NCBI GenBank assembly: GCA_043814015.1 | Contig: JBDRKM010000157.1 | Location: 7,010-71,009, forward strand | From: Pseudomonadota bacterium | Lineage (GTDB): Bacteria > Myxococcota_A > UBA796 > JAFGLY01 | DNA: 64,000 bases | Reading direction: 5' to 3' | Shown: positions 20,213-30,642 of the stretch, piece by piece | Layout: every line of letters starts with the position of its first letter | How positions within the stretch are numbered: the first letter of the stretch is position 1 | Position numbers and translations under genes: made by a program | The notes under the pieces: generated by a model | Databases searched by the model: none | Told to the model about the DNA's origin: nothing | The model's input: the letters and a program-made list of their open reading frames with translations, nothing else

Positions 20213-20285
20213 CCTCCTCCCTGGATGTGATCGCTGGCGCGCGTTGAGAGCACCTTTCATGTGTGCCATCCGCAGGAGGACCACC

Positions 20286-21191
20286 ATGAGGCTGCCGACC
20301 GTCGTGTTCCTCGTCGTGCTCTCAGCCTGCCATCTGGGCGGTGTGGACCCCAACGGCGATCCCGCCGACACCGGCTCCGACTTCGAGGAGTCCAGCATGG
20401 CGGGCGGCCTGGTGCGCCTCCCCGCCGGCTCCTTCACCATGGGCAGCCCCATGGGCGAGACCGGGCGGGACCACGACGAGGTCCGGCACGAGGTCACCCT
20501 CACCCACGACGTCTGGTTCGGGCGCGACGAGGTGAGCCAGGAGATCTTCGAGGACTACGCGGGCTACCTCCCCGCGGGCTTCACCGACTGCGGCGTGGGC
20601 TGCCCCGTGGAGAGCATCACCTGGCACCAGGCGGCCGCCTTCGCCAACGCCGTGTCCGAGGCCGAGGGCCTGGAGCCCTGCTACGCCTGCACCGGCGCCG
20701 AGGTCTGGACGCGCTGTGAGGCCCAGCTCAACCCCTACGCTTGCGCCGGCTTCCGCCTGCCCACCGAGGCCGAGTTCGAGTACGCCGCCCGCGCGGGCCA
20801 GCAAGGCGCCTACCCCGGCGGGGGCCAGCTCACCCAGAACACCTGCGAGCCCGGCGAGCAGCTCTCCAACGGCGACCTCATCGAGGACTTCGCCTGGTAC
20901 TGCGGCAACTCGGAGGAGCGCCCCCACGCCGTGGGCACCCGCCCCGCCAACCGCTGGGGTCTGCACGACACCCTGGGCAACGTCTGGGAGTGGTGCGAGG
21001 ACGGCTACGGCGCCTACGAGGGCGGCGACGTCACCGATCCGGTCGGCCAAGGCATCGGCCTGACCATGGCCCTGCGCGGCGGCTCCTGGGACAGCCTGCC
21101 GCACAAGCTGCGCTTCGCCAACCGTGGCTCCGAGTCCGGCGAGAGCGCCAAGGACACCGTGGGCATGCGGCTGGCGCGGACGGCGGAGTGA
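20286..21191 (+). CDS. Formylglycine-generating enzyme (SUMF1/FGE-sulfatase) fold lipoprotein
   Basis: AGGAGG RBS; LSAC; GSFTMGS, FRLPTEAEFEYAARAG, NRWGLHDTLGNVWEWC, RGGSW, GMRLAR. Confidence 0.9.
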   Translation: MRLPTVVFLVVLSACHLGGVDPNGDPADTGSDFEESSMAGGLVRLPAGSFTMGSPMGETGRDHDEVRHEVTLTHDVWFGRDEVSQEIFEDYAGYLPAGFTDCGVGCPVESITWHQAAAFANAVSEAEGLEPCYACTGAEVWTRCEAQLNPYACAGFRLPTEAEFEYAARAGQQGAYPGGGQLTQNTCEPGEQLSNGDLIEDFAWYCGNSEERPHAVGTRPANRWGLHDTLGNVWEWCEDGYGAYEGGDVTDPVGQGIGLTMALRGGSWDSLPHKLRFANRGSESGESAKDTVGMRLARTAE

Positions 21192-21312: not shown

Positions 21313-22584
21313 TCAGGCCGACGTGGAGCCCTCCCCGGGGCCGTCGTATGGCAGCATCGCGAGGGCGGCGCGGGGGATCTCCGGATCGTAGGGCGGGGAG
21401 AGCTGCGGGCACTCCCGCGCCAGCCGCTCCCCCAGGGCCACCGCCTCCTCCAGCAGCGCGCGGGCGCCGGGCGTGTCGGTCTTGGCGTGGAGGCCGCCGA
21501 GCCGCTCCAGGCTGACGGCGAGCTCCCTGAGCACGTCGGGCCGGTCGCCGAGGGTGGCGCGGAGCTGGCGGGACAGCTCGAGGCTCTCCTGGAAGCTCCG
21601 CTCGGCCTGCTCGTGGCGCTGGCCGGCGGCCTGCACGTCGCCGAGCCGCTCCAGGCTGACGGAGAGGTCCCTGAGCACGTCGGGTCGGTCGCCGAGGGTG
21701 GCGCGCCGCACCCGCGCCAGCCGCACCGCCTCCTCTCCGGCCACCTCCGCCTCCTCCACACGCTGGATCGCGAGCAGATCCGTGGCCAGATTGGCGGACG
21801 CGACCATGGCCTCCCGCCCGAAGTCCCCACCCTCCAGCTCCTGCCAGGCTTCCGCCGCGGCCTCCTGCCACCTCGCGGCCGCCACCAGGTCGTTGCCCTG
21901 GCGCGCGGCCTGCGCGACCAATGCCATGGCCCGCGGCCGGGCGGGGTCTCGCTGGGGCAGCCACCCCAGCGCCGCCACGGCCGCGTCCCGCGCTTCGGCC
22001 TCGGCCCCGCGCTCCAGGGCCTGCTCGGCTTGCTGCAGCGACACGTGCGCCCGGGCGGGGTCGGCACGCTCCAGCTCGGGCAACTCCACGGCCTCCAGCG
22101 GGGCCTCGGGCCCGGGGGGCGGCGCGGGCGGCGCCAGGTCGTCCACCACCTGCACCAGGCTGCGGAAGGCCCACAGGTCCGGCGCGCCCTCCCGCAGCAG
22201 GGGGCGGCAGGCCAGGGGGGCGATGACCACCAGGCCGGCGCCGCCGGAGATCAAGCGCTGGCGGCGCTCGTTGAGCAGGCTCACCAGGCGTCGCAGGGGC
22301 CGGTCTGGCGCTCCGCGCGGCGGCGGCAGGATCAGCAGGGCGCGGGTTCGGCGCTCGGCGGCCTGGGTGAAGGCCTCGGCGGCCGGGGCCAGCGCCTCCG
22401 GCTCGCGGGGGGCCACCACCGTGAGAGGCCCCTCGGCCGCCAGGCGCGCGCGCAGCTCCAGCACGGTGGGGGTGAGATCGGTGAACACGAAGGCCAGCCA
22501 CGTGTCCTGGGCCCAGGTCTCGATGCGGCGCAGCTCTTCCCAGCAGCGCTCTCCCGCGGGGGTCAGGGAGTGGGGTGCGCTCAC
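21313..22584 (-). CDS. TPR-like repeat protein with N-terminal degenerate NTPase-like region
   Basis: GTG start overlaps the upstream stop; LNERRQRL...APDLWAFRS; two 40-aa RATLGDRPDVLR(D/E)L(S/A)VSLERLG repeats. Confidence 0.7.
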   Translation of the reverse strand: MSAPHSLTPAGERCWEELRRIETWAQDTWLAFVFTDLTPTVLELRARLAAEGPLTVVAPREPEALAPAAEAFTQAAERRTRALLILPPPRGAPDRPLRRLVSLLNERRQRLISGGAGLVVIAPLACRPLLREGAPDLWAFRSLVQVVDDLAPPAPPPGPEAPLEAVELPELERADPARAHVSLQQAEQALERGAEAEARDAAVAALGWLPQRDPARPRAMALVAQAARQGNDLVAAARWQEAAAEAWQELEGGDFGREAMVASANLATDLLAIQRVEEAEVAGEEAVRLARVRRATLGDRPDVLRDLSVSLERLGDVQAAGQRHEQAERSFQESLELSRQLRATLGDRPDVLRELAVSLERLGGLHAKTDTPGARALLEEAVALGERLARECPQLSPPYDPEIPRAALAMLPYDGPGEGSTSA

Positions 22585-23927
22585 GGCGCGCCGGACGCGG
22601 GGACCCGGGCCGCCAGCTTCACGACCTCCTCCGCCAGCAGCGGGTGCGGCCGGTACCACTCGGCACCGTTGCGGTAGGTGAGAACCAGGTGGCTGTCGAA
22701 CAGGCGGGCCAACTCCCCCAGCTTGTCGAGGTCGGGCAGGTGGGCCTCGCCGGTGCGGTCTATCTCGGCCAACCAGCAGGCGTCGGCCTGGCTGAGGGGC
22801 AGATAGCCGTTGCGCACCTCAGCGATGGCCCAGGCCAGGATGGGATCGGTGGCGACGACGGTGTTGTGCCGGGCGCAGGAGCTCAGCACGCCCCGCAGGA
22901 TGCGGAAGAGGTCGCGGAACTGGCCGCCGGAGGCCAGCGCGACCTGGTCGAGCTGGGCGCGGGAGAGCACCTTCTCCCAGTCGAAGCGCTGCGCCACCAC
23001 CTCGGCCAGGGCGTCGAGGCCGGGGCGGAAGGGCGCCCGGCTCACCTGATCGCGCACCTTGAGGCAGGGCAGGAGCAGCGCGTTGTCGTAGCCCTGGATC
23101 ACGTGGGGCGCCTTGACCTTGAGCCAGGGCGGCACCGTGTAGACCACGTGGACGCCCGGAACGCGCAGGAGGTCGGTGCGGTTGAAGGTGGCCACGATGT
23201 GGCTCGCCACCTCGGCGGCGCTCGCGCCGGTGCCCTGGATGTGCTCCAGGCTGTCGAAGAGGATCACCACGGGCTTGTCGCCGTGCAGCCGTTTCAGCTC
23301 GGCGACGACCTGCGCGTAGTAATCGCGGACCTCCTTGGCCAGCGCACCCGCCACGCCCGTGAGCTGCTCCTGCAAGCGCCGCTGGAAGGAGGGCGAGGAC
23401 TTCAGCGCCAGCTTGACCCCCAGCCCCACGCCGCCAGGCTCGCCCTTGATCTCGACCTCGTCCACGTTCACGTGGACACCTCTCAGGAACCCCACCAGGC
23501 GCTCCCAATAGGTGTTGGGCAGCGCCCGGCGCAGCGCCTCGTCGCGTTCGACCACCTCGGCGAAGGCCCCGGCCGTGGCCAGCAGGAGATCCGGCACGTC
23601 GGGCGGGGCGTCCATGTTGATGAATTCGGTCATGTCGCAGTAGACGACCACGGCCCCGGCGTGCTCCTCGAGGCGGTGCTTCAGGCGTGACAGCTCGGTG
23701 CTCTTGCCGCTGCCGCGATACCCCGAGAACAGGACGGCGCTGCCGTGGGGCGACCAGGTGATGTTCTGGTACAGGCGATCCACCGGATCGAGCTCGCGCA
23801 GATCCTCGCGGTCGTAGATGGAGACGTAGCGCGCGCGATCCTCGGGCTTGCTGGCGTCCAGCGCCCGCAGGCCCAGGGCCCGCCAGGCCTCCGCCAGGAA
23901 GTGCTCCTTGTCGATGGTCAGGGGCAT
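22581..23927 (-). CDS. P-loop (AAA+/STAND-like) ATPase
   Basis: Walker A GYRGSGKS, Walker B VVILFDSLE, SGGQFRDL; GGAGG RBS. Confidence 0.85.
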   Translation of the reverse strand: MPLTIDKEHFLAEAWRALGLRALDASKPEDRARYVSIYDREDLRELDPVDRLYQNITWSPHGSAVLFSGYRGSGKSTELSRLKHRLEEHAGAVVVYCDMTEFINMDAPPDVPDLLLATAGAFAEVVERDEALRRALPNTYWERLVGFLRGVHVNVDEVEIKGEPGGVGLGVKLALKSSPSFQRRLQEQLTGVAGALAKEVRDYYAQVVAELKRLHGDKPVVILFDSLEHIQGTGASAAEVASHIVATFNRTDLLRVPGVHVVYTVPPWLKVKAPHVIQGYDNALLLPCLKVRDQVSRAPFRPGLDALAEVVAQRFDWEKVLSRAQLDQVALASGGQFRDLFRILRGVLSSCARHNTVVATDPILAWAIAEVRNGYLPLSQADACWLAEIDRTGEAHLPDLDKLGELARLFDSHLVLTYRNGAEWYRPHPLLAEEVVKLAARVPASGAP

Positions 23928-23988
23928 CGGACCTCCGCGAGCAGGTCGTTCCTGCCCGCGCCAGCTTATCACGCTCGTGAAGGCCCGC

Positions 23989-25137
23989 TCACTCCCAGCC
24001 CGCCAGCCCCTCCCCCGCCAGGTCCTCCACCAGGGACAGCAGCGGATACGCCGGGTTGTAGTGCTTCCTCAAGAAATAGGCGTTGCGCTCGGCGTACAGG
24101 ATCGCGCCCACCCGATCGGCCGCGGCGATGCTCATCTGCTCATGGCGACACATGACGGGTGACACACCGTTGATGTCACCCGTGGCCTGGCGGTTGAGGC
24201 AGCCACAGGTGTGCTCGCAACGCTCCGTGAGGGCGCAGCCCTCGCAGAAGGCCTTGACAGGGCTGGAGCGCAGGGCCCAGCGCAGGCGCGCGATCTCATC
24301 TACACCCTGCCAGACATCGCCCATGCAGGAGGGGCTCTCCCGTCCGTCGTTGGCGAACTGCACGCAGGGGAAGAGGTCGCCTTCAGGCGAGACGGAGAGC
24401 TGGCGCACGCCCAGCTCGCAGCGGTCGTGGTGGCACTCCCCCTGGCGGATGTGGCTGGCCAGCTTCTTCTCGAAGGGCGCCAGGTAGAACTTGCGACCCG
24501 CGCGGGTCCAGTCCACGTAGCGCTCGGCCAGCAGGGCGTACTGGCCCTCCAGCACGTCGAGATCCTCGTCTGTCCAGGGCGCGGCGAAGTTGAGGCTGAA
24601 GCTCAGGTAGCGCACGCCCTCGTCCAGCAGGAAGGCCGCGGATTCGGCCATCAGGGGTGCCGTGTCGGGGTTCACCACCGCGTGCACCAGGCTGTAGGGG
24701 CGGACCTTCAACAGGCGGCGCAGGGCGTCCAGCGTGCGGTCGAAGGAGGATGAGCCGTCCGGGAAGCGGCGGTGGGCCTCGTGGGCGGCGCGCACGCCAT
24801 CGAGGCTGAGGGCGATGTGCACGCCTTTAGCGGCGGCGAAGGTGAGAAACTCGTCGTCCAGCGCGATGCCGTTGGTGGTGAGCTTGAAGCGCACGGGCGG
24901 GCGCCCGGGAGCCTCGAGGGCCTCGCCGTGGGCCACCACCGCCCGGATGAGGTCCTTGTGCAGCAGGGGTTCGCCCCCGAAGAAGGCGAGCCCGAAAGCC
25001 TCGCTGTTCTCGCGCAGGCCGAACTCCAGGGCGGCGATGGCCGTCTCCAGGCGCATGCCGGGCTCAGGGCGCGGTGGGGCGTAGCAGTAGTCGCAGCGCA
25101 ACTGACAAGCGCGGGTGAGGTGCAGGGTGAGGTGCAT
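23989..25137 (-). CDS. Radical SAM/SPASM peptide- or protein-maturase-type enzyme
   Basis: CQLRCDYC, FFGGEPLL, TTNG, SLDG; full SPASM Cys set CELG...FPC...CEGC...CEHTCGC...MC. Confidence 0.9.
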   Translation of the reverse strand: MHLTLHLTRACQLRCDYCYAPPRPEPGMRLETAIAALEFGLRENSEAFGLAFFGGEPLLHKDLIRAVVAHGEALEAPGRPPVRFKLTTNGIALDDEFLTFAAAKGVHIALSLDGVRAAHEAHRRFPDGSSSFDRTLDALRRLLKVRPYSLVHAVVNPDTAPLMAESAAFLLDEGVRYLSFSLNFAAPWTDEDLDVLEGQYALLAERYVDWTRAGRKFYLAPFEKKLASHIRQGECHHDRCELGVRQLSVSPEGDLFPCVQFANDGRESPSCMGDVWQGVDEIARLRWALRSSPVKAFCEGCALTERCEHTCGCLNRQATGDINGVSPVMCRHEQMSIAAADRVGAILYAERNAYFLRKHYNPAYPLLSLVEDLAGEGLAGWE

Positions 25138-25138
25138 G

Positions 25139-25330
25139 TCAGGGGGAGTCCTCGGCTTTGATCTCGGCGATGAAGTGGTTTGAGGCGGTCACCAGAGGGC
25201 CACGGGTCCACGCCTCCTCCGCGAGCCCCATCCAGTGCAGGTCGCTGCAAGCGTAGCGCAGACACTGCGCGAAGGCCTCCGAGGCGCCCGTGCCCAGGCA
25301 GTCCCCGTCGGCCACGAGATCGGCGCGCAT
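25139..25330 (-). CDS. 63-aa Cys-containing protein, shortened paralogue of the upstream gene's C-terminus
   Basis: MRADLVADGDCLGTGASEAFAQCLRYACSD...FIAEIKAEDSP; fills the gap between two genes with 11-nt and 1-nt spacing. Confidence 0.55.
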   Translation of the reverse strand: MRADLVADGDCLGTGASEAFAQCLRYACSDLHWMGLAEEAWTRGPLVTASNHFIAEIKAEDSP

Positions 25331-25341
25331 GGGGGCCCCGC

Positions 25342-26016
25342 TCAGCCTGGGGAGCCCTCCTGCTCCTCGATGAAACGGTCCACGACCTCGCGCATGTACC
25401 TCTCGGCGCCGTTGGGGTCGTCCTCGCAGGCGCAGGCTGGCTCGGCGGCGAACAGCGCGACGTCGGCACAGGCGAAGTTGAGGCAGGCCTCCAGGGCGTC
25501 CACCGCTACCCAGGAGTAGCAATTCCCCTCGGCGAGATCGACGCAGTTGTCGTGGGACCGTTGCCGAGGCTCGGTCATCACCGCCGAGTCCTCGATCCCG
25601 CAGCGCTCGTTCCCCGTGGCCAGCAACTCTTCGGCCGCCTGCTGGTACTCCGGGCACTCTTCCTCGGTGACGATCTCGGCGATCAGGCCGGCGTCCCAGT
25701 TGGCCAGATCGGGCTCGAAGGGCAGGACCATGGGACCCGCGCCTGCGTCGGCCGCCAGCGTGTAGCCGTGCGCGGCGAACTGCTCCTGGACGATGTCCAG
25801 GGTCTCGCCCTCGGACAAATAAACCGTGGGGCAGATGGTGACGCAGCCGAAGGTGCAGGCCGGGGCGGTGGCGACCGCCACCACCAGGCTCAGGCCGAGG
25901 GCGGAGCCGAGGACGCGGCTGGCGCTGGCCAATGGGCGGACGGCCGGATCGGCCAGGGCCTCGCGGCGGGTGCCGTAGGCGGGGGGAGCGTAGTCGCGGA
26001 GGGGGCCGGCGCGCAT
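25342..26016 (-). CDS. Cys-rich exported/lipoprotein, candidate radical SAM substrate
   Basis: GGAG RBS; leader MRAGPLRDYAPPAYGT, hydrophobic stretch ending APAC, then TFGCVTICPTVYLSEGE. Confidence 0.7.
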   Translation of the reverse strand: MRAGPLRDYAPPAYGTRREALADPAVRPLASASRVLGSALGLSLVVAVATAPACTFGCVTICPTVYLSEGETLDIVQEQFAAHGYTLAADAGAGPMVLPFEPDLANWDAGLIAEIVTEEECPEYQQAAEELLATGNERCGIEDSAVMTEPRQRSHDNCVDLAEGNCYSWVAVDALEACLNFACADVALFAAEPACACEDDPNGAERYMREVVDRFIEEQEGSPG

Positions 26017-26069
26017 GGGGGACTCCGGGCGGGGGGCGATGGACAGGTGCGCCCAGCGGGCCAGAGGGA

Positions 26070-27266
26070 TCACTCGAGCATGGCCCACAGCCCGCGCTGC
26101 TCATCCGAGACGCCAGCGATCCAGTCGCGCAGCCACGCCATCTCCGCGTCGTGCTCTTCCAGCGTGCACTCCCAGCGCGGATCGCTAGCCAGCTCCGGGC
26201 GCACGAGGGCGTCCACGGCGTCCAGCTCTGCGGCGAGGCCCGCGGCGTCCAGCAGCGCGGCGACGCGGTCCAGCACGGCCAGATACCCCGCGAGACAGGC
26301 CTCATCCGTGAAGCATGTGTCAGCGATACGGCCCATGGGAGCGCGCCAGTCCGAGTCCCACTCGTCGGCCGGGGTGAAGGTGAAGTCCAGATCCCAGGGC
26401 AGCAGCTCGGCCCGCCCCGTGACGGGGTCGAAGTACACCCGGTAGTTGTTGGCCTGCAGCGTGTAGCCGTCCACCTGCCCCACCCAGGCCTCGACGGCCA
26501 GCATGCGGGCGATGCGGGGCCAGTCCAGCACCTGGGCCGGCGCGCCGAACGCTGTCTCGCCGCCGTCGAGGGCCGCGGTCACGGCGCGCACGTCGGCGAG
26601 CTCCACGTCGCGCCCTTCGTCCAACTCGAACAGCTCCTGCAGTCCCGCCACGAAGTCCACCTGGCTCTCGAAGTCGCCGTCGATGACGTAGTCCCCGTCG
26701 TAGAGGTTGCCGTCGGGCTCCGGGTAGCGCAGGGTCAGGAATGGCTGGTCGAGGTTCTCGAGGAGCCCGTACAGCCCGAAGTCTTCGCCGTCGAGGGAGA
26801 GCCGGGCGTAGCCCGCGCGCGAGGCGGGCTGGCCCACCGCGGCGAAGGCCCGCAGGGCCAGCCGATCGCGTGCCGCGGCGCAGTCCACCACCAGGTTGTC
26901 GAGATCGATCTTCCGCAGCCCGGCCCATGACACATCGGCCTGGTATCGGTCGAGGTCGAGCTTGAAGCTCGGTTTGCCGTCGAGTTCGCGGAAGGAGCCG
27001 CTGCGGCCCTTGAGCCGCAGGCCCACCTCGCCGAGGGCGGCGCCGTCTACGGCCAGGTTGGCGTGCACGTAGTCGTAGGGGTCGGCCTCCAGGGCCTCGC
27101 GTGCTCCCTCATGGAGGGAGAGATCCACCGCGACCACGCGCTCCAGCCCGAAGAGGCTGGCGGCGGCGTCCTCCCGCGGCCAGGCATCTTCCCAGGTGAG
27201 GGCGCCGGTGAAGGGGTCGCCCATCGCACCTTGCGGAGCGCAGGCCAGCAACAGGCCCAACCACAT
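26070..27266 (-). CDS. CotH kinase family lipoprotein
   Basis: LLAC; GLRLKG..SFR..KPSFKLD, GLYGLLE, GNLYDG, DGY...NNYRVY, LLPWDLD. Confidence 0.9.
   Translation of the reverse strand: MWLGLLLACAPQGAMGDPFTGALTWEDAWPREDAAASLFGLERVVAVDLSLHEGAREALEADPYDYVHANLAVDGAALGEVGLRLKGRSGSFRELDGKPSFKLDLDRYQADVSWAGLRKIDLDNLVVDCAAARDRLALRAFAAVGQPASRAGYARLSLDGEDFGLYGLLENLDQPFLTLRYPEPDGNLYDGDYVIDGDFESQVDFVAGLQELFELDEGRDVELADVRAVTAALDGGETAFGAPAQVLDWPRIARMLAVEAWVGQVDGYTLQANNYRVYFDPVTGRAELLPWDLDFTFTPADEWDSDWRAPMGRIADTCFTDEACLAGYLAVLDRVAALLDAAGLAAELDAVDALVRPELASDPRWECTLEEHDAEMAWLRDWIAGVSDEQRGLWAMLE

Positions 27267-27868: not shown

Positions 27869-27875
<7 letters not shown>
27273..27875 (-). CDS. Hypothetical secreted protein
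   Basis: Signal MLIPLLVLTAALA; overlaps the upstream gene. Confidence 0.7.
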
Positions 27876-29085
<1,210 letters not shown>

Positions 29086-29089
<4 letters not shown>

Positions 29090-30635
29090 TCCGGAGCCTC
29101 CTCGGCACCTTCGGGTGCGTCGTCCGGTTCGTCCCCCTCGATGGCGTCCCGGAAGGTCGCGCCGCTGGGCAGGGCCTCGGCCTCGCCCTCCGGCACGACG
29201 CGCCGCAGGATGGGGTTGCCGGCGGGCGAGAGCAGGCCGTCCCCCAGCACGGGCGCGGGCACCTGCTCGCCGTTCCAGGGCAGGACGATGGGGTCGCCCT
29301 CGTCCAGCACGGGGCCGTCCTGCAGGGCGCGGATGCGGGTGATGACGAAGTCGGCGCCGTCGCGGCCCCCCAGACCGGCCGGGTCGGTGTCGCCCATGCC
29401 GCGCCAGGCCAGGCGCGCGGGGCGCACCGAGAGGGCCACCAGCTGCTCGAAGACCACCCGGGCGCGCTCCGCTGAGAGGGCGTAGTCCGCGGCGGGGCTG
29501 CCGGCGCCGGCGGCGTGCCCTTCCACCACCAGCAGCTCGAGCTGCGGGAAGCTGTTGACCAGCGCGGCGACGGCCGCGAGCAAGGGCTTTGCGTCGGGCA
29601 GCAGGGTGGCGGTGCCGGGCTCGAAGGCCACGGCGGCCGCCAGCTCGAGCTGGCCGTGATCGATCCAGGCCGCGCCACGGGGTTGCACGGCAGGGGTGGG
29701 CTCCGGCAGCGCGCGGACGAGGGGTGGGTTCGGCGAGGGAACCAGCACCAGATCGGGCGCGCCTCGCCGCCGCGGGCGGCCGCTGCCCTTCACGGAGGCC
29801 ATCAGCCTGAGGTCGCCGGCGCCGTAGCCGTGGCCGATGCCGGTGCCGCCCAGCAGGTCGAGGCGGCCGAAGCGCCCGGCGCGGAGCCGCAGGCCGCCGA
29901 GCACCTCCGCGGGGTGGGCGCCACCCGCATCGCCCTGGCCCGTGAGGCCGTGGCGCGAGGAGATCTCCACGAGGCCGCCCAGCCAGGGCGTGGCCGAAGC
30001 CAGCAGGGCCGCCCCCAGCACGATCTCGGGTGCGGCGACGAGATCGGCGCCGCTGTCCACGGAGGCGCGGGTGAGGAACCCGGTCTGGCCGAGCAGGCGC
30101 AGGCGCTCGCCGCCCCAGGCCACCAGCAGGGCCGGGGCCCAGCGGGCGCGCCGTTCGGCGAACCAGGCCTCGCGGGTGCCCACGGGCAGGTAGACCCCCA
30201 GGGAGGGGCCCAGGCCGAACAGGGGGCGGTCCACCCAGGCGCTGCGCCAGGCCAGCGACACATCTCCCAACGCCAGCGGCGATGCCGGGGCCACGGCGGC
30301 CAGATCGCCGCCCTCCTGCAGGGCGCCGCTGGCCGCCAGCGACAGGGAGCCACGGCGCGATACAGCCACCGATACACCGAGGTCCACGGTCTGGCGCCAG
30401 GCGATGGCGGCGCCGCCGAGCTCTCCGTCCAGGTAGTAGTCCAGAGGCGCGCGCTCGTACTGCCAGGCGAGCCCAGCGGTGACGGTGCCGGCCAGATCCG
30501 CGCGGGGGTCGTCCACGGTCACCGCGGCCTGGGGACCCGGCGCGGGGTGCACCAGCTGGGTGTCGATGGAGCGATCCAGCGTCCAGTCCTCGGCGTAGGC
30601 ACCGGGGCAGGCCAGGGACAGGGCGAGCAGGGCGC

Positions 30636-30642
<7 letters not shown>
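29086..30642 (-). CDS. Outer-membrane beta-barrel + OmpA-like domain protein (TraB-like, no TSP3 linker)
   Basis: Signal; amphipathic strands (WQYERAPL, GTGIGHGYG..DLR); OmpA-like VAFEPG...VEGHA...YALSAERA...GMG. Confidence 0.8.

Follow-up and report, generated by a model that had tools for sequence, protein, structure and literature searches.

Three tightly spaced genes in a 64,000-nucleotide stretch of contig JBDRKM010000157.1 (the whole stretch, called the window below, with a G+C content of about 73%) encode a 224-residue protein (geneA), a 63-residue protein (geneB) and a radical S-adenosylmethionine (SAM)/SPASM enzyme. We consider it probable that the genes found here represent a two-gene cassette of wide distribution, in which a CteB/PapB-like radical SAM/SPASM enzyme lacking a recognition element (RRE) of the kind used with peptides that are made by the ribosome and modified after translation (RiPPs) acts on an adjacently encoded, exported protein of about 220-330 residues as its substrate. 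By analogy with characterized relatives, the outcome would be maturation at the level of a whole protein, RiPP-like in its logic, probably through a Cys-centered crosslink introduced before export. The features of the locus on which this proposal draws are as follows.

26016..25342, reverse strand: geneA, 224 residues, ATG start; candidate substrate and divergent member of an unnamed partner family
25915..26016, reverse strand: N-terminal extension of geneA, residues 1-34, with P12-A-Y14-G-T16; predicted enzyme-docking element
25858..25914, reverse strand: hydrophobic signal-like stretch of geneA by hydropathy, V35-A53, with A-P-A directly before C54
25804..25857, reverse strand: core of geneA, C54-TFG-C58-VTIC-P63-TVYLS-E69-GE71, with the family-wide G-C and L-S-E motifs; candidate modification site
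25330..25139, reverse strand: geneB, 63 residues, ATG start
25137..23989, reverse strand: radical SAM/SPASM enzyme gene, 382 residues, without an RRE
25084..25107, reverse strand: enzyme C11-x3-C15-x2-C18, the radical SAM [4Fe-4S]-binding motif, invariant in 29 of 29 aligned homologues
24148..24420, reverse strand: enzyme SPASM region, C240 to C330, with the auxiliary-cluster cysteines C240, C258, C298, C301, C307, C311, C313 and C330, all invariant
24022..24117, reverse strand: enzyme C-terminal region 341-372 (D341, G344, L347, Y348, K358-H-Y-N-P-A-Y-P365), predicted docking surface for the partner extension

The coordinates of the open reading frames (ORFs) bear out the compact three-gene unit described in an earlier note on this DNA, with 11 nt (25331-25341) between geneA and geneB and 1 nt (25138) between geneB and the enzyme gene. 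The sequence of geneA also reads as that note had claimed, with an extension ahead of a hydrophobic signal and then a Cys-containing core. The N-terminus is M-R-A-G-P-L-R-D-Y-A-P-P-A-Y-G-T (Y9-A-P-P-A-Y-G-T16), and the letters that follow the hydrophobic stretch are C54-T-F-G-C58-V-T-I-C62-P-T-V-Y-L-S-E69. The ATG start at 26016 is backed by homology, because M1 lies 13 residues before Y14, as in canonical relatives.

Relatives of the enzyme were confirmed in 344 stretches of DNA by a scan of a collection holding one genome per species, from Planctomycetota, Verrucomicrobiota, Hydrogenedentota, Acidobacteriota, Myxococcota, Bacillota and other phyla. Pairing was counted in the best 80 of these 344 loci. 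In almost every one, a protein of about 250-350 residues ends near the start of the enzyme and carries the tail L-L-R-x-Q-V-x-D-F-x-x-W-L-K-x-Q-G-x-I. From these same 80 loci, 49 ORFs of 230-330 residues were picked by this tail pattern as the seed of a hidden Markov model (HMM), which detected a member of the partner family in 76 of the 80. In 72 loci the partner lies on the same strand and ends no more than 300 nt upstream of the enzyme, and in four more it neighbors the enzyme in some other arrangement. Of the four loci without a partner, two (L010 and L056) have no upstream DNA and two (L068 and L076) do. Two or more partner-family ORFs, and up to five, are present in 32 of the 76 loci with a family member, many as tandem copies. 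Enzyme homologues without motif-bearing neighbors, which the earlier note had named as grounds for abandoning the idea, are thus not what this survey found; both motifs named there recur beside members of the clade.

All-against-all clustering of the ORFs from the 80 loci and the window gave the same picture. The enzyme and the partner form the sole cluster present everywhere, and the seven clusters that come next consist of ORFs shadowing these genes in alternative frames or in antisense. Shadow ORFs aside, no other gene family among the 25 largest clusters listed was common to more than four of the 81 regions. Within the window's own family, 8 of 10 genomes, counting the window's, have an enzyme match at E ≤ 1e-40, and adjacency outlasts changes of orientation, the genes being divergent in L083 and tail-to-tail in L085 and L090. 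As judged by gene content, the enzyme and its partner are a unit that recurs in hundreds of bacterial genomes. One database protein, P0029 (637 residues), reads from a partner (...W-L-K-E-K-K-V-I-Q-K-Y-T-P-R-R-A-A-L-E-E-S) into an enzyme (M-H-L-T-L-H-L...) within one ORF, which could represent a natural fusion, the loss of a stop codon or an error of sequencing.

Partner proteins of about 220-330 residues share a characteristic architecture. Canonical members begin with K-P-V-x-x-Y-x-x-P-x-Y-P-T-R-x-E-V-L-A-D-P-x-L-L, followed by a short hydrophobic stretch and often then a Cys. The core, V-A-P-I-F-E-H-G-E-G-R-G-x-x-G-C-V-V-V-x-P-P-V-F-L-S-E-E-E-A, is followed by V-E-F-V-S, F-Y-D-P and a C-terminal tail helix (L-L-R-x-Q-V-x-D-F-x-x-W-L). 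When the partner profile was searched against 1.84 billion representatives of clusters at 50% identity, 2082 proteins matched at E ≤ 0.001, 1659 at ≤ 1e-10 and 1018 at ≤ 1e-30, and the called partner proteins start at the Met of the extension and end at the tail. When Pfam and NCBIfam models were run on geneA, geneB and five canonical partners, only noise was returned (E ≥ 0.059), and the family has no model in either database. Look-alikes in the ESM Atlas are all clusters of hypothetical proteins with no common Pfam family.

Conservation was counted in 92 full-length partner ORFs from 63 loci, covering HMM positions from 12 or earlier to 270 or later, and is given here in the numbering of a canonical partner (L038).

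P12: 86/92
Y14: 89/92
P15: 91/92
Position 16: T in 71/92, D in 10/92, six other residues in the other 11
H77: 79/92
G85: 84/92
C86: 85/92
P91: 85/92
E97: 90/92
D157: 83/92
Y216: 87/92
D217: 84/92
W262: 91/92

At least one copy bearing the conserved Cys is present in 61 of the 63 loci. In a separate alignment of 67 rows (A4), C58 and E69 of geneA are invariant; most Cys-less paralogs were left out of that alignment, so the counts over 92 ORFs are the fairer ones.

By sequence comparison, geneA is a divergent, Cys-rich member of this family. It matches the partner HMM with E=3.1e-10, over residues 1-27 and 56-89 only, and has Gly at position 15 where the family has Pro. Bridging loci connect it to the canonical members: L094 (enzyme 90% identical) and L095 (76%), both from a metagenome scan, and L083, whose genome belongs to the window's own family. 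Identity of geneA is 69% with the first of the two L094 partners and 30% with the partner in L095. The latter (275 residues) has the geneA-type extension, a C-x-F-G-C-x-x-x-C-P-T-V-Y-(L/M)-S-E core and a Cys-rich middle, and it ends in W-Y-L-Q-R-E-V-D-L-F-V-A-Q-L-Q-Q-E-G-V-L, the canonical tail. The tail of geneA, R-Y-M-R-E-V-V-D-R-F-I-E-E, aligns with the family helix and has lost the Trp. In the window's sub-clade the H-G-E-G-R-G segment is absent, and V-E-F-V-S and F-Y-D-P are among the motifs missing or diverged. The earlier note had called the exported protein Cys-rich, which holds for the window's sub-clade (geneA has 11 Cys in 224 residues) and fails for the family. The Cys-richness is a local trait, because the sub-clade gained about eight cysteines while a single Cys is conserved family-wide.

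To place the enzyme, we compared it with curated families and solved structures. SPASM domains carry a seven- or eight-Cys pattern, C-x9-15-G-x4-C ... C-x2-C-x5-C-x3-C ... C. The set reported for this enzyme in the earlier note is indeed complete: C240-x12-G253-x4-C258 ... C298-x2-C301-x5-C307-x3-C311, together with C313 and C330, is invariant across the 29 homologues. C271 and most of the named residues of region 341-372 are kept in at least 90% of them. The Pfam Radical_SAM model (PF04055) scores 58.9 bits, above its cutoff of 29.5. Models of 68 NCBIfam families matched, and among the best 25 of these 68 no family cutoff was reached. The relevant matches were as follows.

PapB, ranthipeptide maturase (NF047865): 178.1 bits, cutoff 340; best NCBIfam match, below cutoff
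SCIFF maturase (TIGR03974): 134.9 bits, cutoff 425; below cutoff
nif11 maturase: 123.9 bits, cutoff 518.7; below cutoff
QhpD (TIGR03906): 119.2 bits, cutoff 453; below cutoff
Anaerobic sulfatase-maturating enzyme, anSME (TIGR03942): 77.9 bits, cutoff 349.45; below cutoff
FxsB: 68.8 bits, cutoff 370; weaker match
YhhB: 66.3 bits; weaker match

The PapB, SCIFF and QhpD models each score above the anSME model. Among solved structures, the best match of the family profile is CteB (5wgg; E 5.6e-53, 183 bits), with ChlB and anSME (4k37, 79.5 bits) next at about 80 bits. The CteB alignment spans CteB residues 99-445 only and leaves out the N-terminal domain of CteB. The RRE of PapB occupies residues 1-86 (PMC12715619). 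The enzyme described here begins 10 residues ahead of the cluster motif, with M1 and H2 conserved. It has no RRE, because this start is conserved and the CteB alignment begins at residue 99. A clade search returned 460 proteins at E ≤ 1e-20 among 8000 candidates, and their source names are only "radical SAM protein" or "uncharacterized protein". In terms of sequence relatedness, the enzyme is a member of a large unnamed radical SAM/SPASM clade that is closest to the thioether-forming CteB and PapB.

The relation to sulfatase maturases deserves separate consideration, since it bears on an alternative chemistry. An anSME is itself a SPASM enzyme without an RRE, and it alters a single residue in a full-length protein that has yet to be exported. 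By extension, the single conserved Cys of the partner might be oxidized to formylglycine or another form and serve as the catalytic residue of an extracytoplasmic enzyme, with no crosslink formed. One Cys is conserved family-wide (85/92), the partner is predicted to be a folded alpha/beta domain of about 180 residues rather than a peptide, and homology to anSME is detectable by both measures (TIGR03942 and 4k37). The Cys count itself decides neither for formylglycine nor for a thioether, because a thioether needs only that Cys and an acceptor. The homology to anSME is, however, much weaker than that to the thioether enzymes: CteB reaches 183 bits against 79.5 for anSME among structures, and PapB 178 against 78 among families, with the anSME cutoff of 349 far from reached. 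Clustering with sulfatase maturases, a second outcome that the earlier note had set against its own proposal, was therefore not observed. The sulfatase motif C/S-x-P/A-x-R is absent around C58 or C62 (no C-x-P-x-R is present), and Pfam and NCBIfam scans found no sulfatase domain in the partner. We regard formylglycine formation as unlikely.

Structure prediction was applied to the partner alone and to its complex with the enzyme. The AlphaFold2 model of the canonical partner L038 (alignment A3, 88 rows) has a mean predicted local distance difference test (pLDDT) value of 90.9 and a predicted template modeling (pTM) score of 0.76. At its N-terminus are short helices, and another helix spans the hydrophobic stretch; after a linker of low confidence comes an alpha/beta domain from about residue 70, ending in a long C-terminal helix (233-266). 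The model of geneA itself is weaker, with a mean pLDDT of 72.2 and several blocks of the Cys-rich C-terminal half at 47-70. Foldseek against the Protein Data Bank gave no match to the partner model at E ≤ 0.001. A wide search (VIA) gave Z values of 5.8-5.1 to the restriction-endonuclease-like domains Bax1, NGO0050, I-Bth0305I, VRR_NUC and Vsr, a recurrent theme although below a trustworthy level; as to the PD-(D/E)xK residues, the V-E-F-V-S strand of the partner has no Lys.

The complex was predicted from the enzyme (A1), geneA residues 1-100 (alignment A4), SAM and three [4Fe-4S] clusters. The interface score ipSAE was 0.83, 0.83 and 0.81, and all three controls gave 0.00. In calibration, 116 of 157 solved complexes reached the mark, as did 2 of 215 mismatched pairs, a comparison that is only roughly valid here because self-made alignments were used and ligands rode along. 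The partner had a pLDDT of 64-68, and at least 75% of the contacts agree between runs. Expected error is lowest where residues 12-17 of the partner meet 229-230 and 341-349 of the enzyme, and where residues 4-6 meet 301-302. The predicted interface also takes in residues 56-61 and 65-74 of the geneA core, together with enzyme residues 51, 81-85, 105-107, 146-150 and 176-181 and the SPASM cysteines 240, 258, 298, 301, 311, 313 and 330. Positions conserved at 90% or more are enriched in this interface (35 of 65 residues, compared with 132 of 382 overall; hypergeometric p = 3.6e-4). The prediction supports a placement in which the partner core is laid across the barrel and the SPASM cysteines while the extension is docked on the C-terminal helices of the enzyme. 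The extension, which the earlier note had likened to a RiPP leader, thus behaves as a leader in a prediction that passed its controls. In the solved CteB-peptide complex the leader is reportedly bound by the RRE; the docking result is unlikely to be a memory of that complex, because the RRE is absent from this enzyme.

A further resemblance concerns the enzyme tail, K-H-Y-N-P-A-Y-P-L-L-S-L-V-E-D (residues ~355-372, 24022-24075), which is similar to P-P-A-Y-G-T-R-R-E-A-L-A-D of geneA (residues 11-23, 25948-25986). Tail residues 360-366 contact the partner in the predicted complex, and the tail could be either a built-in leader mimic or a chance resemblance.

The position of the extension in the predicted complex also bears on what the conserved motif is for. 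The P-x-Y-P-T motif might itself be modified, for example to a three-residue Tyr-x-Thr/Asp cyclophane or by some other change to Tyr, on a cytoplasmic tail retained by a membrane-anchored protein, the G-C core then being an unrelated feature of the outer domain. This would require no modification of a protein before export. It is the sole motif common to the partners of both enzyme clades (the second is described below), Y14 and P15 are among the best conserved residues, the lowest-error contacts are predicted at residues 12-17, and Y-x-T/D fits the aromatic-x-x pattern of cyclophane-forming SPASM enzymes, with FxsB (68.8 bits) and YhhB (66.3 bits) among the weaker matches. However, the enzyme residues at Y14 (229-230 and 341-349) lie in the C-terminal helices, away from C11/C15/C18 and G54-G55-E56. 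The contact at Y14 looks like docking rather than catalysis, because the residues that make it are away from the SAM cluster and the G54-G55-E56 site. Thioether families are ahead of cyclophane families by more than 100 bits, position 16 is variable (T in 71, D in 10 and six other residues in 11), and position 15 in the window is Gly rather than Pro. Modification of the Tyr motif seems improbable to us.

It is also conceivable that the partner uses its cytoplasmic tail to bring the enzyme to the membrane or to regulate it there, and that the enzyme acts on a lipid or on another protein. A docking prediction speaks to binding and not to turnover, titles and abstracts in the literature describe radical SAM enzymes of the SPASM type with membrane lipids as substrates, and the likeness of the enzyme C-terminus (N-P-A-Y-P-L-L-S-L-V-E-D) to the extension (P-A-Y-G-T-R-R-E-A-L-A-D) could reflect a regulatory exchange. 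Arrays of at least two, and up to five, partner ORFs per enzyme in 32 of 76 loci look more like RiPP clusters with multiple precursors than like anchors, the core segment is placed in the predicted interface with barrel and SPASM residues, and the nearest characterized relatives all act on peptides or proteins. We give such a tethering role little credence.

Maturation of the partner itself remains the explanation that we favor, and a possible course can be outlined. The unfolded partner would dock in the cytoplasm through its P-x-Y-x-T extension on the conserved C-terminal helices of the enzyme. Docking would set the G-C58...P...Y-L-S-E69 segment over the barrel opening, beside the SPASM clusters, where the enzyme would modify it. 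The likeliest product would be a thioether that links the conserved Cys with a carbon in a side chain close by; CteB, PapB and QhpD all make Cys thioethers to side-chain carbons, and in CteB an auxiliary cluster is bound by the Cys of the substrate. The first candidate acceptor would be the invariant Glu ten residues on, since QhpC has Cys-Glu and Cys-Asp links (PMC13692751). Since radical SAM enzymes are cytoplasmic, modification would come before export. The protein would then be exported, and the extension might be removed along with the signal.

Measured against the usual marks of a RiPP precursor, the partner is encoded beside a maturase and is predicted to bind the enzyme through its N-terminus (ipSAE 0.83 versus 0.00 for the control); in place of a short peptide with a released core, however, the partners have 220-330 residues and a folded domain. 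A broader and more tentative idea, which we think possible though doubtful, is that the cassette follows a new logic: the leader would lie within the N-terminal region of a secretion signal, the signal peptidase would serve as the leader peptidase, and the RRE would be replaced by C-terminal helices with a P-A-Y-P leader mimic. Two or more clades of the enzyme, each with its own unrelated type of exported substrate, would then follow this logic and define a large, hidden class of extracytoplasmic proteins matured by radical SAM enzymes, possibly with a new fold.

Several features of the partner suggest export, namely the short hydrophobic stretch, the charge pattern ahead of it and the many cysteines of the window's sub-clade. 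The best 15-residue segment of the geneA stretch has a mean Kyte-Doolittle hydropathy of 2.33, and the mean is at least 1.6 in 67 of the 92 family members; the region ahead of the stretch has a median net charge of +4 across the family. The earlier note had proposed maturation of a surface lipoprotein rather than of a small peptide. The protein part of that claim is supported in that the 224-residue protein, and no small peptide, is the conserved neighbor of the clade (directly upstream in 72 of 80 loci and adjacent in four more). As to the lipoprotein part, T-A-P-A-C54 is non-canonical against the lipobox [LVI][ASTVI][GAS]C, and A-P-A would also suit signal peptidase I. A loose lipobox-like pattern follows the hydrophobic stretch in 48 of 92 members.

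A number of observations weigh against the proposed maturation. Its support consists of genomics and predicted structures throughout, and the basis for export is confined to the hydrophobic stretch, charge and cysteines. The Pfam SPASM model scores 17.1 bits on the enzyme, under its cutoff of 21.5, and the chemistry of the enzyme is not transferable by homology because no curated NCBIfam cutoff is reached. The conserved Cys is missing from 7 of the 92 partner ORFs, and 2 of the 63 loci (L058 and L025) have no Cys-bearing copy; the upstream DNA is only 1145 nt at L058 and 5000 nt at L025. In the L038 model, the G-C segment is part of the confidently folded domain (pLDDT 87-97) and not a free peptide, and therefore modification would have to precede folding. 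The most confident predicted contacts fall at the extension rather than at the core. Finally, the P0029 fusion, if real, would sit badly with export of the partner.

Among known systems, the best sequence matches are the CteB/SCIFF maturase (5wgg, TIGR03974) and PapB with its substrate PapA, which have the same radical SAM core and a SPASM domain with two auxiliary clusters. As in the cassette described here, the substrate gene is adjacent and encodes an N-terminal recognition segment followed by a Cys-containing core. In contrast to those enzymes, this one has no RRE and scores under both curated cutoffs, and recognition is predicted to occur via its C-terminal helices. The substrates of CteB and PapB are peptides of about 50 residues, whereas the protein here has 220-330 residues and a signal-like stretch; PapA and SCIFF carry repeated C-x3-D or six-Cys motifs, whereas one Cys is conserved here. 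In place of the six-Cys peptide that would mark a SCIFF system, the neighboring gene encodes a 224-residue protein.

Two systems with protein substrates are also related in concept. QhpD is a SPASM radical SAM enzyme that makes Cys-Asp/Glu thioethers in QhpC, the gamma subunit of quinohemoprotein amine dehydrogenase, which is extracytoplasmic in the end, and it binds the QhpC leader by an RRE (PMC13692751). TIGR03906 is among the top matches of our enzyme (119 bits), but far below the cutoff of 453, and no RRE is present here. Domain scans and ORF clusters revealed no dehydrogenase genes near the cassette. In Methanococcus voltae, a RiPP-like thioether modification of the large protein CrpA by the neighboring SPASM radical SAM enzyme CrpC was described in 2026, and CrpC has a predicted RRE (PMC13692751). 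This pair is the nearest precedent in concept. CrpA is archaeal and defined there by a high Cys content, whereas the system described here is bacterial, its exported partner keeps a single Cys across the family and its enzyme has no RRE. In STAND/vWA conflict systems, SPASM enzymes are paired with FxSxx peptides (PMC7159879). Membership in such a system was ruled out, with FxsB at 68.8 bits against a cutoff of 370 and the neighboring AAA_16 ATPase gene not conserved in L094, L095 or the clusters listed.

Full-text literature searches did not find a description of the cassette. In the portion of PMC10288494 that was available, there is no occurrence of Planctomyc-, lipoprotein, signal peptide or phrasing on RRE-less enzymes, and its supplements might list the clade. 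The cassette is set apart from QhpD/QhpC, anSME/sulfatase and CrpC/CrpA by the combination of no RRE, a recognition segment ahead of a signal-like stretch, one conserved Cys and a partner family without a model.

Most of what is known of radical SAM/SPASM maturases concerns small peptides, and examples that act on whole proteins are few (sulfatases, QhpC and, in 2026, CrpA). If the proposed maturation is correct, the cassette would add a large family to whole-protein maturation by radical SAM enzymes. It would also supply a role for an exported protein that is conserved yet unannotated in Planctomycetota, Verrucomicrobiota, Hydrogenedentota, Acidobacteriota, Myxococcota and Bacillota. The cassette offers a directly testable case of RRE-independent substrate recognition, which bears on the understanding and engineering of such enzymes.

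The small gene between geneA and the enzyme, on which the earlier note makes no remark, appears to have a simple origin. In L094, two full-length partner genes precede the enzyme, the second of which (1779-2468, 229 residues) has its own extension, hydrophobic stretch and core. Residues 3-63 of geneB are 75% identical to the last 61 residues (169-229) of this second partner, and the window is about 500 nt shorter than L094 in the geneB region (MAFFT; the gap is placed imprecisely). geneB has kept a start codon, its first three codons (M-R-A) are the same as those of geneA, and it has no extension, signal or core. On the simplest reading of these alignments, geneB is what was left when a second partner gene, once in tandem with geneA, lost about 166 internal codons in frame. 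It is not a substrate of the geneA kind, because extension, signal and core are absent. That geneB is a true small precursor was likewise ruled out, as it is the C-terminal piece of a paralog without extension and core.

An assembly artifact was ruled out as well, because the junction is bridged by contigs from two studies. A 573-nt contig from run X1, which may be the source sample, covers 25235-25787 with zero differences. A 1483-nt contig from run X3, which belongs to a different study, spans 25076-26034; it shows 42 substitutions and three 1-nt indels, and there is no insertion in it. No RNA data set was listed among the public runs that contain this DNA. Within geneB, five of seven X3 substitutions fall at third codon positions among the differences listed. 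In codon comparisons with L094, the ratio of nonsynonymous to synonymous substitution rates (dN/dS) was 0.30 for geneB, 0.30 for the first 158 codons of geneA and 0.125 for the enzyme; given its ratio of 0.30, geneB may still be translated. In contigs from X3 and X4, which represent related strains, one base is missing at 25987 (codon 10 of geneA) and the sequence beyond 26034 is unlike that of the window, so the first codons of geneA and its upstream neighbor differ in these relatives.

The same genome encodes a second radical SAM/SPASM paralog (G000:C114:24806-25894; L091 1501-2604) that is 38% identical to the window enzyme. Directly preceding this paralog and its relatives are lipoprotein-like ORFs of 184-190 residues (L091 911-1483; L087-L089, L092 and L093), and a second tandem paralog of the partner is frequent among the relatives. 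These second-clade partners start with M-x-R-x-K-K-...-P-x-Y-P-D/H-(I/V)-K-A-F, followed by a hydrophobic stretch and T/A-G-C, and have only the N-terminal x-Y-P (D/T) extension in common with the geneA family. An orphan ORF of the genome (G000:C502:19907-20647, reverse strand) starts with M-E-R-Q-K-V-I-R-S-A-A-P-A-Y-P-A-R-V-E-L, followed by a hydrophobic stretch and L-A-A-C. It matches the leader HMM weakly (E=0.19), and tblastn at E ≤ 1e-5 found no match to the window enzyme on its contig.

The genes around the cassette vary among loci. Downstream of the enzyme, at a distance of 16 nt, are genes for an AAA_16/STAND-like ATPase (463 residues) and then a TPR protein (448 residues), both within 21313-23972 on the reverse strand, and a protein with an FGE-sulfatase domain (315 residues) is encoded at 20244-21191 on the forward strand. 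None of these genes is conserved beside the cassette elsewhere, in L094, in L095 or in the clusters listed. The FGE-sulfatase gene was ruled out as a functional link, as it is not beside the cassette in other loci. Directly upstream of geneA, a CotH-family gene occupies 26070-27266 on the reverse strand (Pfam CotH, E 3e-32). An ORF of 1030 residues lies in the same position in L095 (7-3099), its C-terminal part CotH-like by eye, and L094 has apparently only fragments of a CotH-type gene; the CotH gene is not common to the wider set of 80 loci, as judged from the clusters listed. Farther upstream on the reverse strand are genes for a thrombospondin type 3 repeat protein with D-x-D-x-D-G repeats (406 residues, 27869-29089) and an OmpA-domain protein (518 residues, 29086-30642), which suggests a neighborhood of cell-envelope genes.

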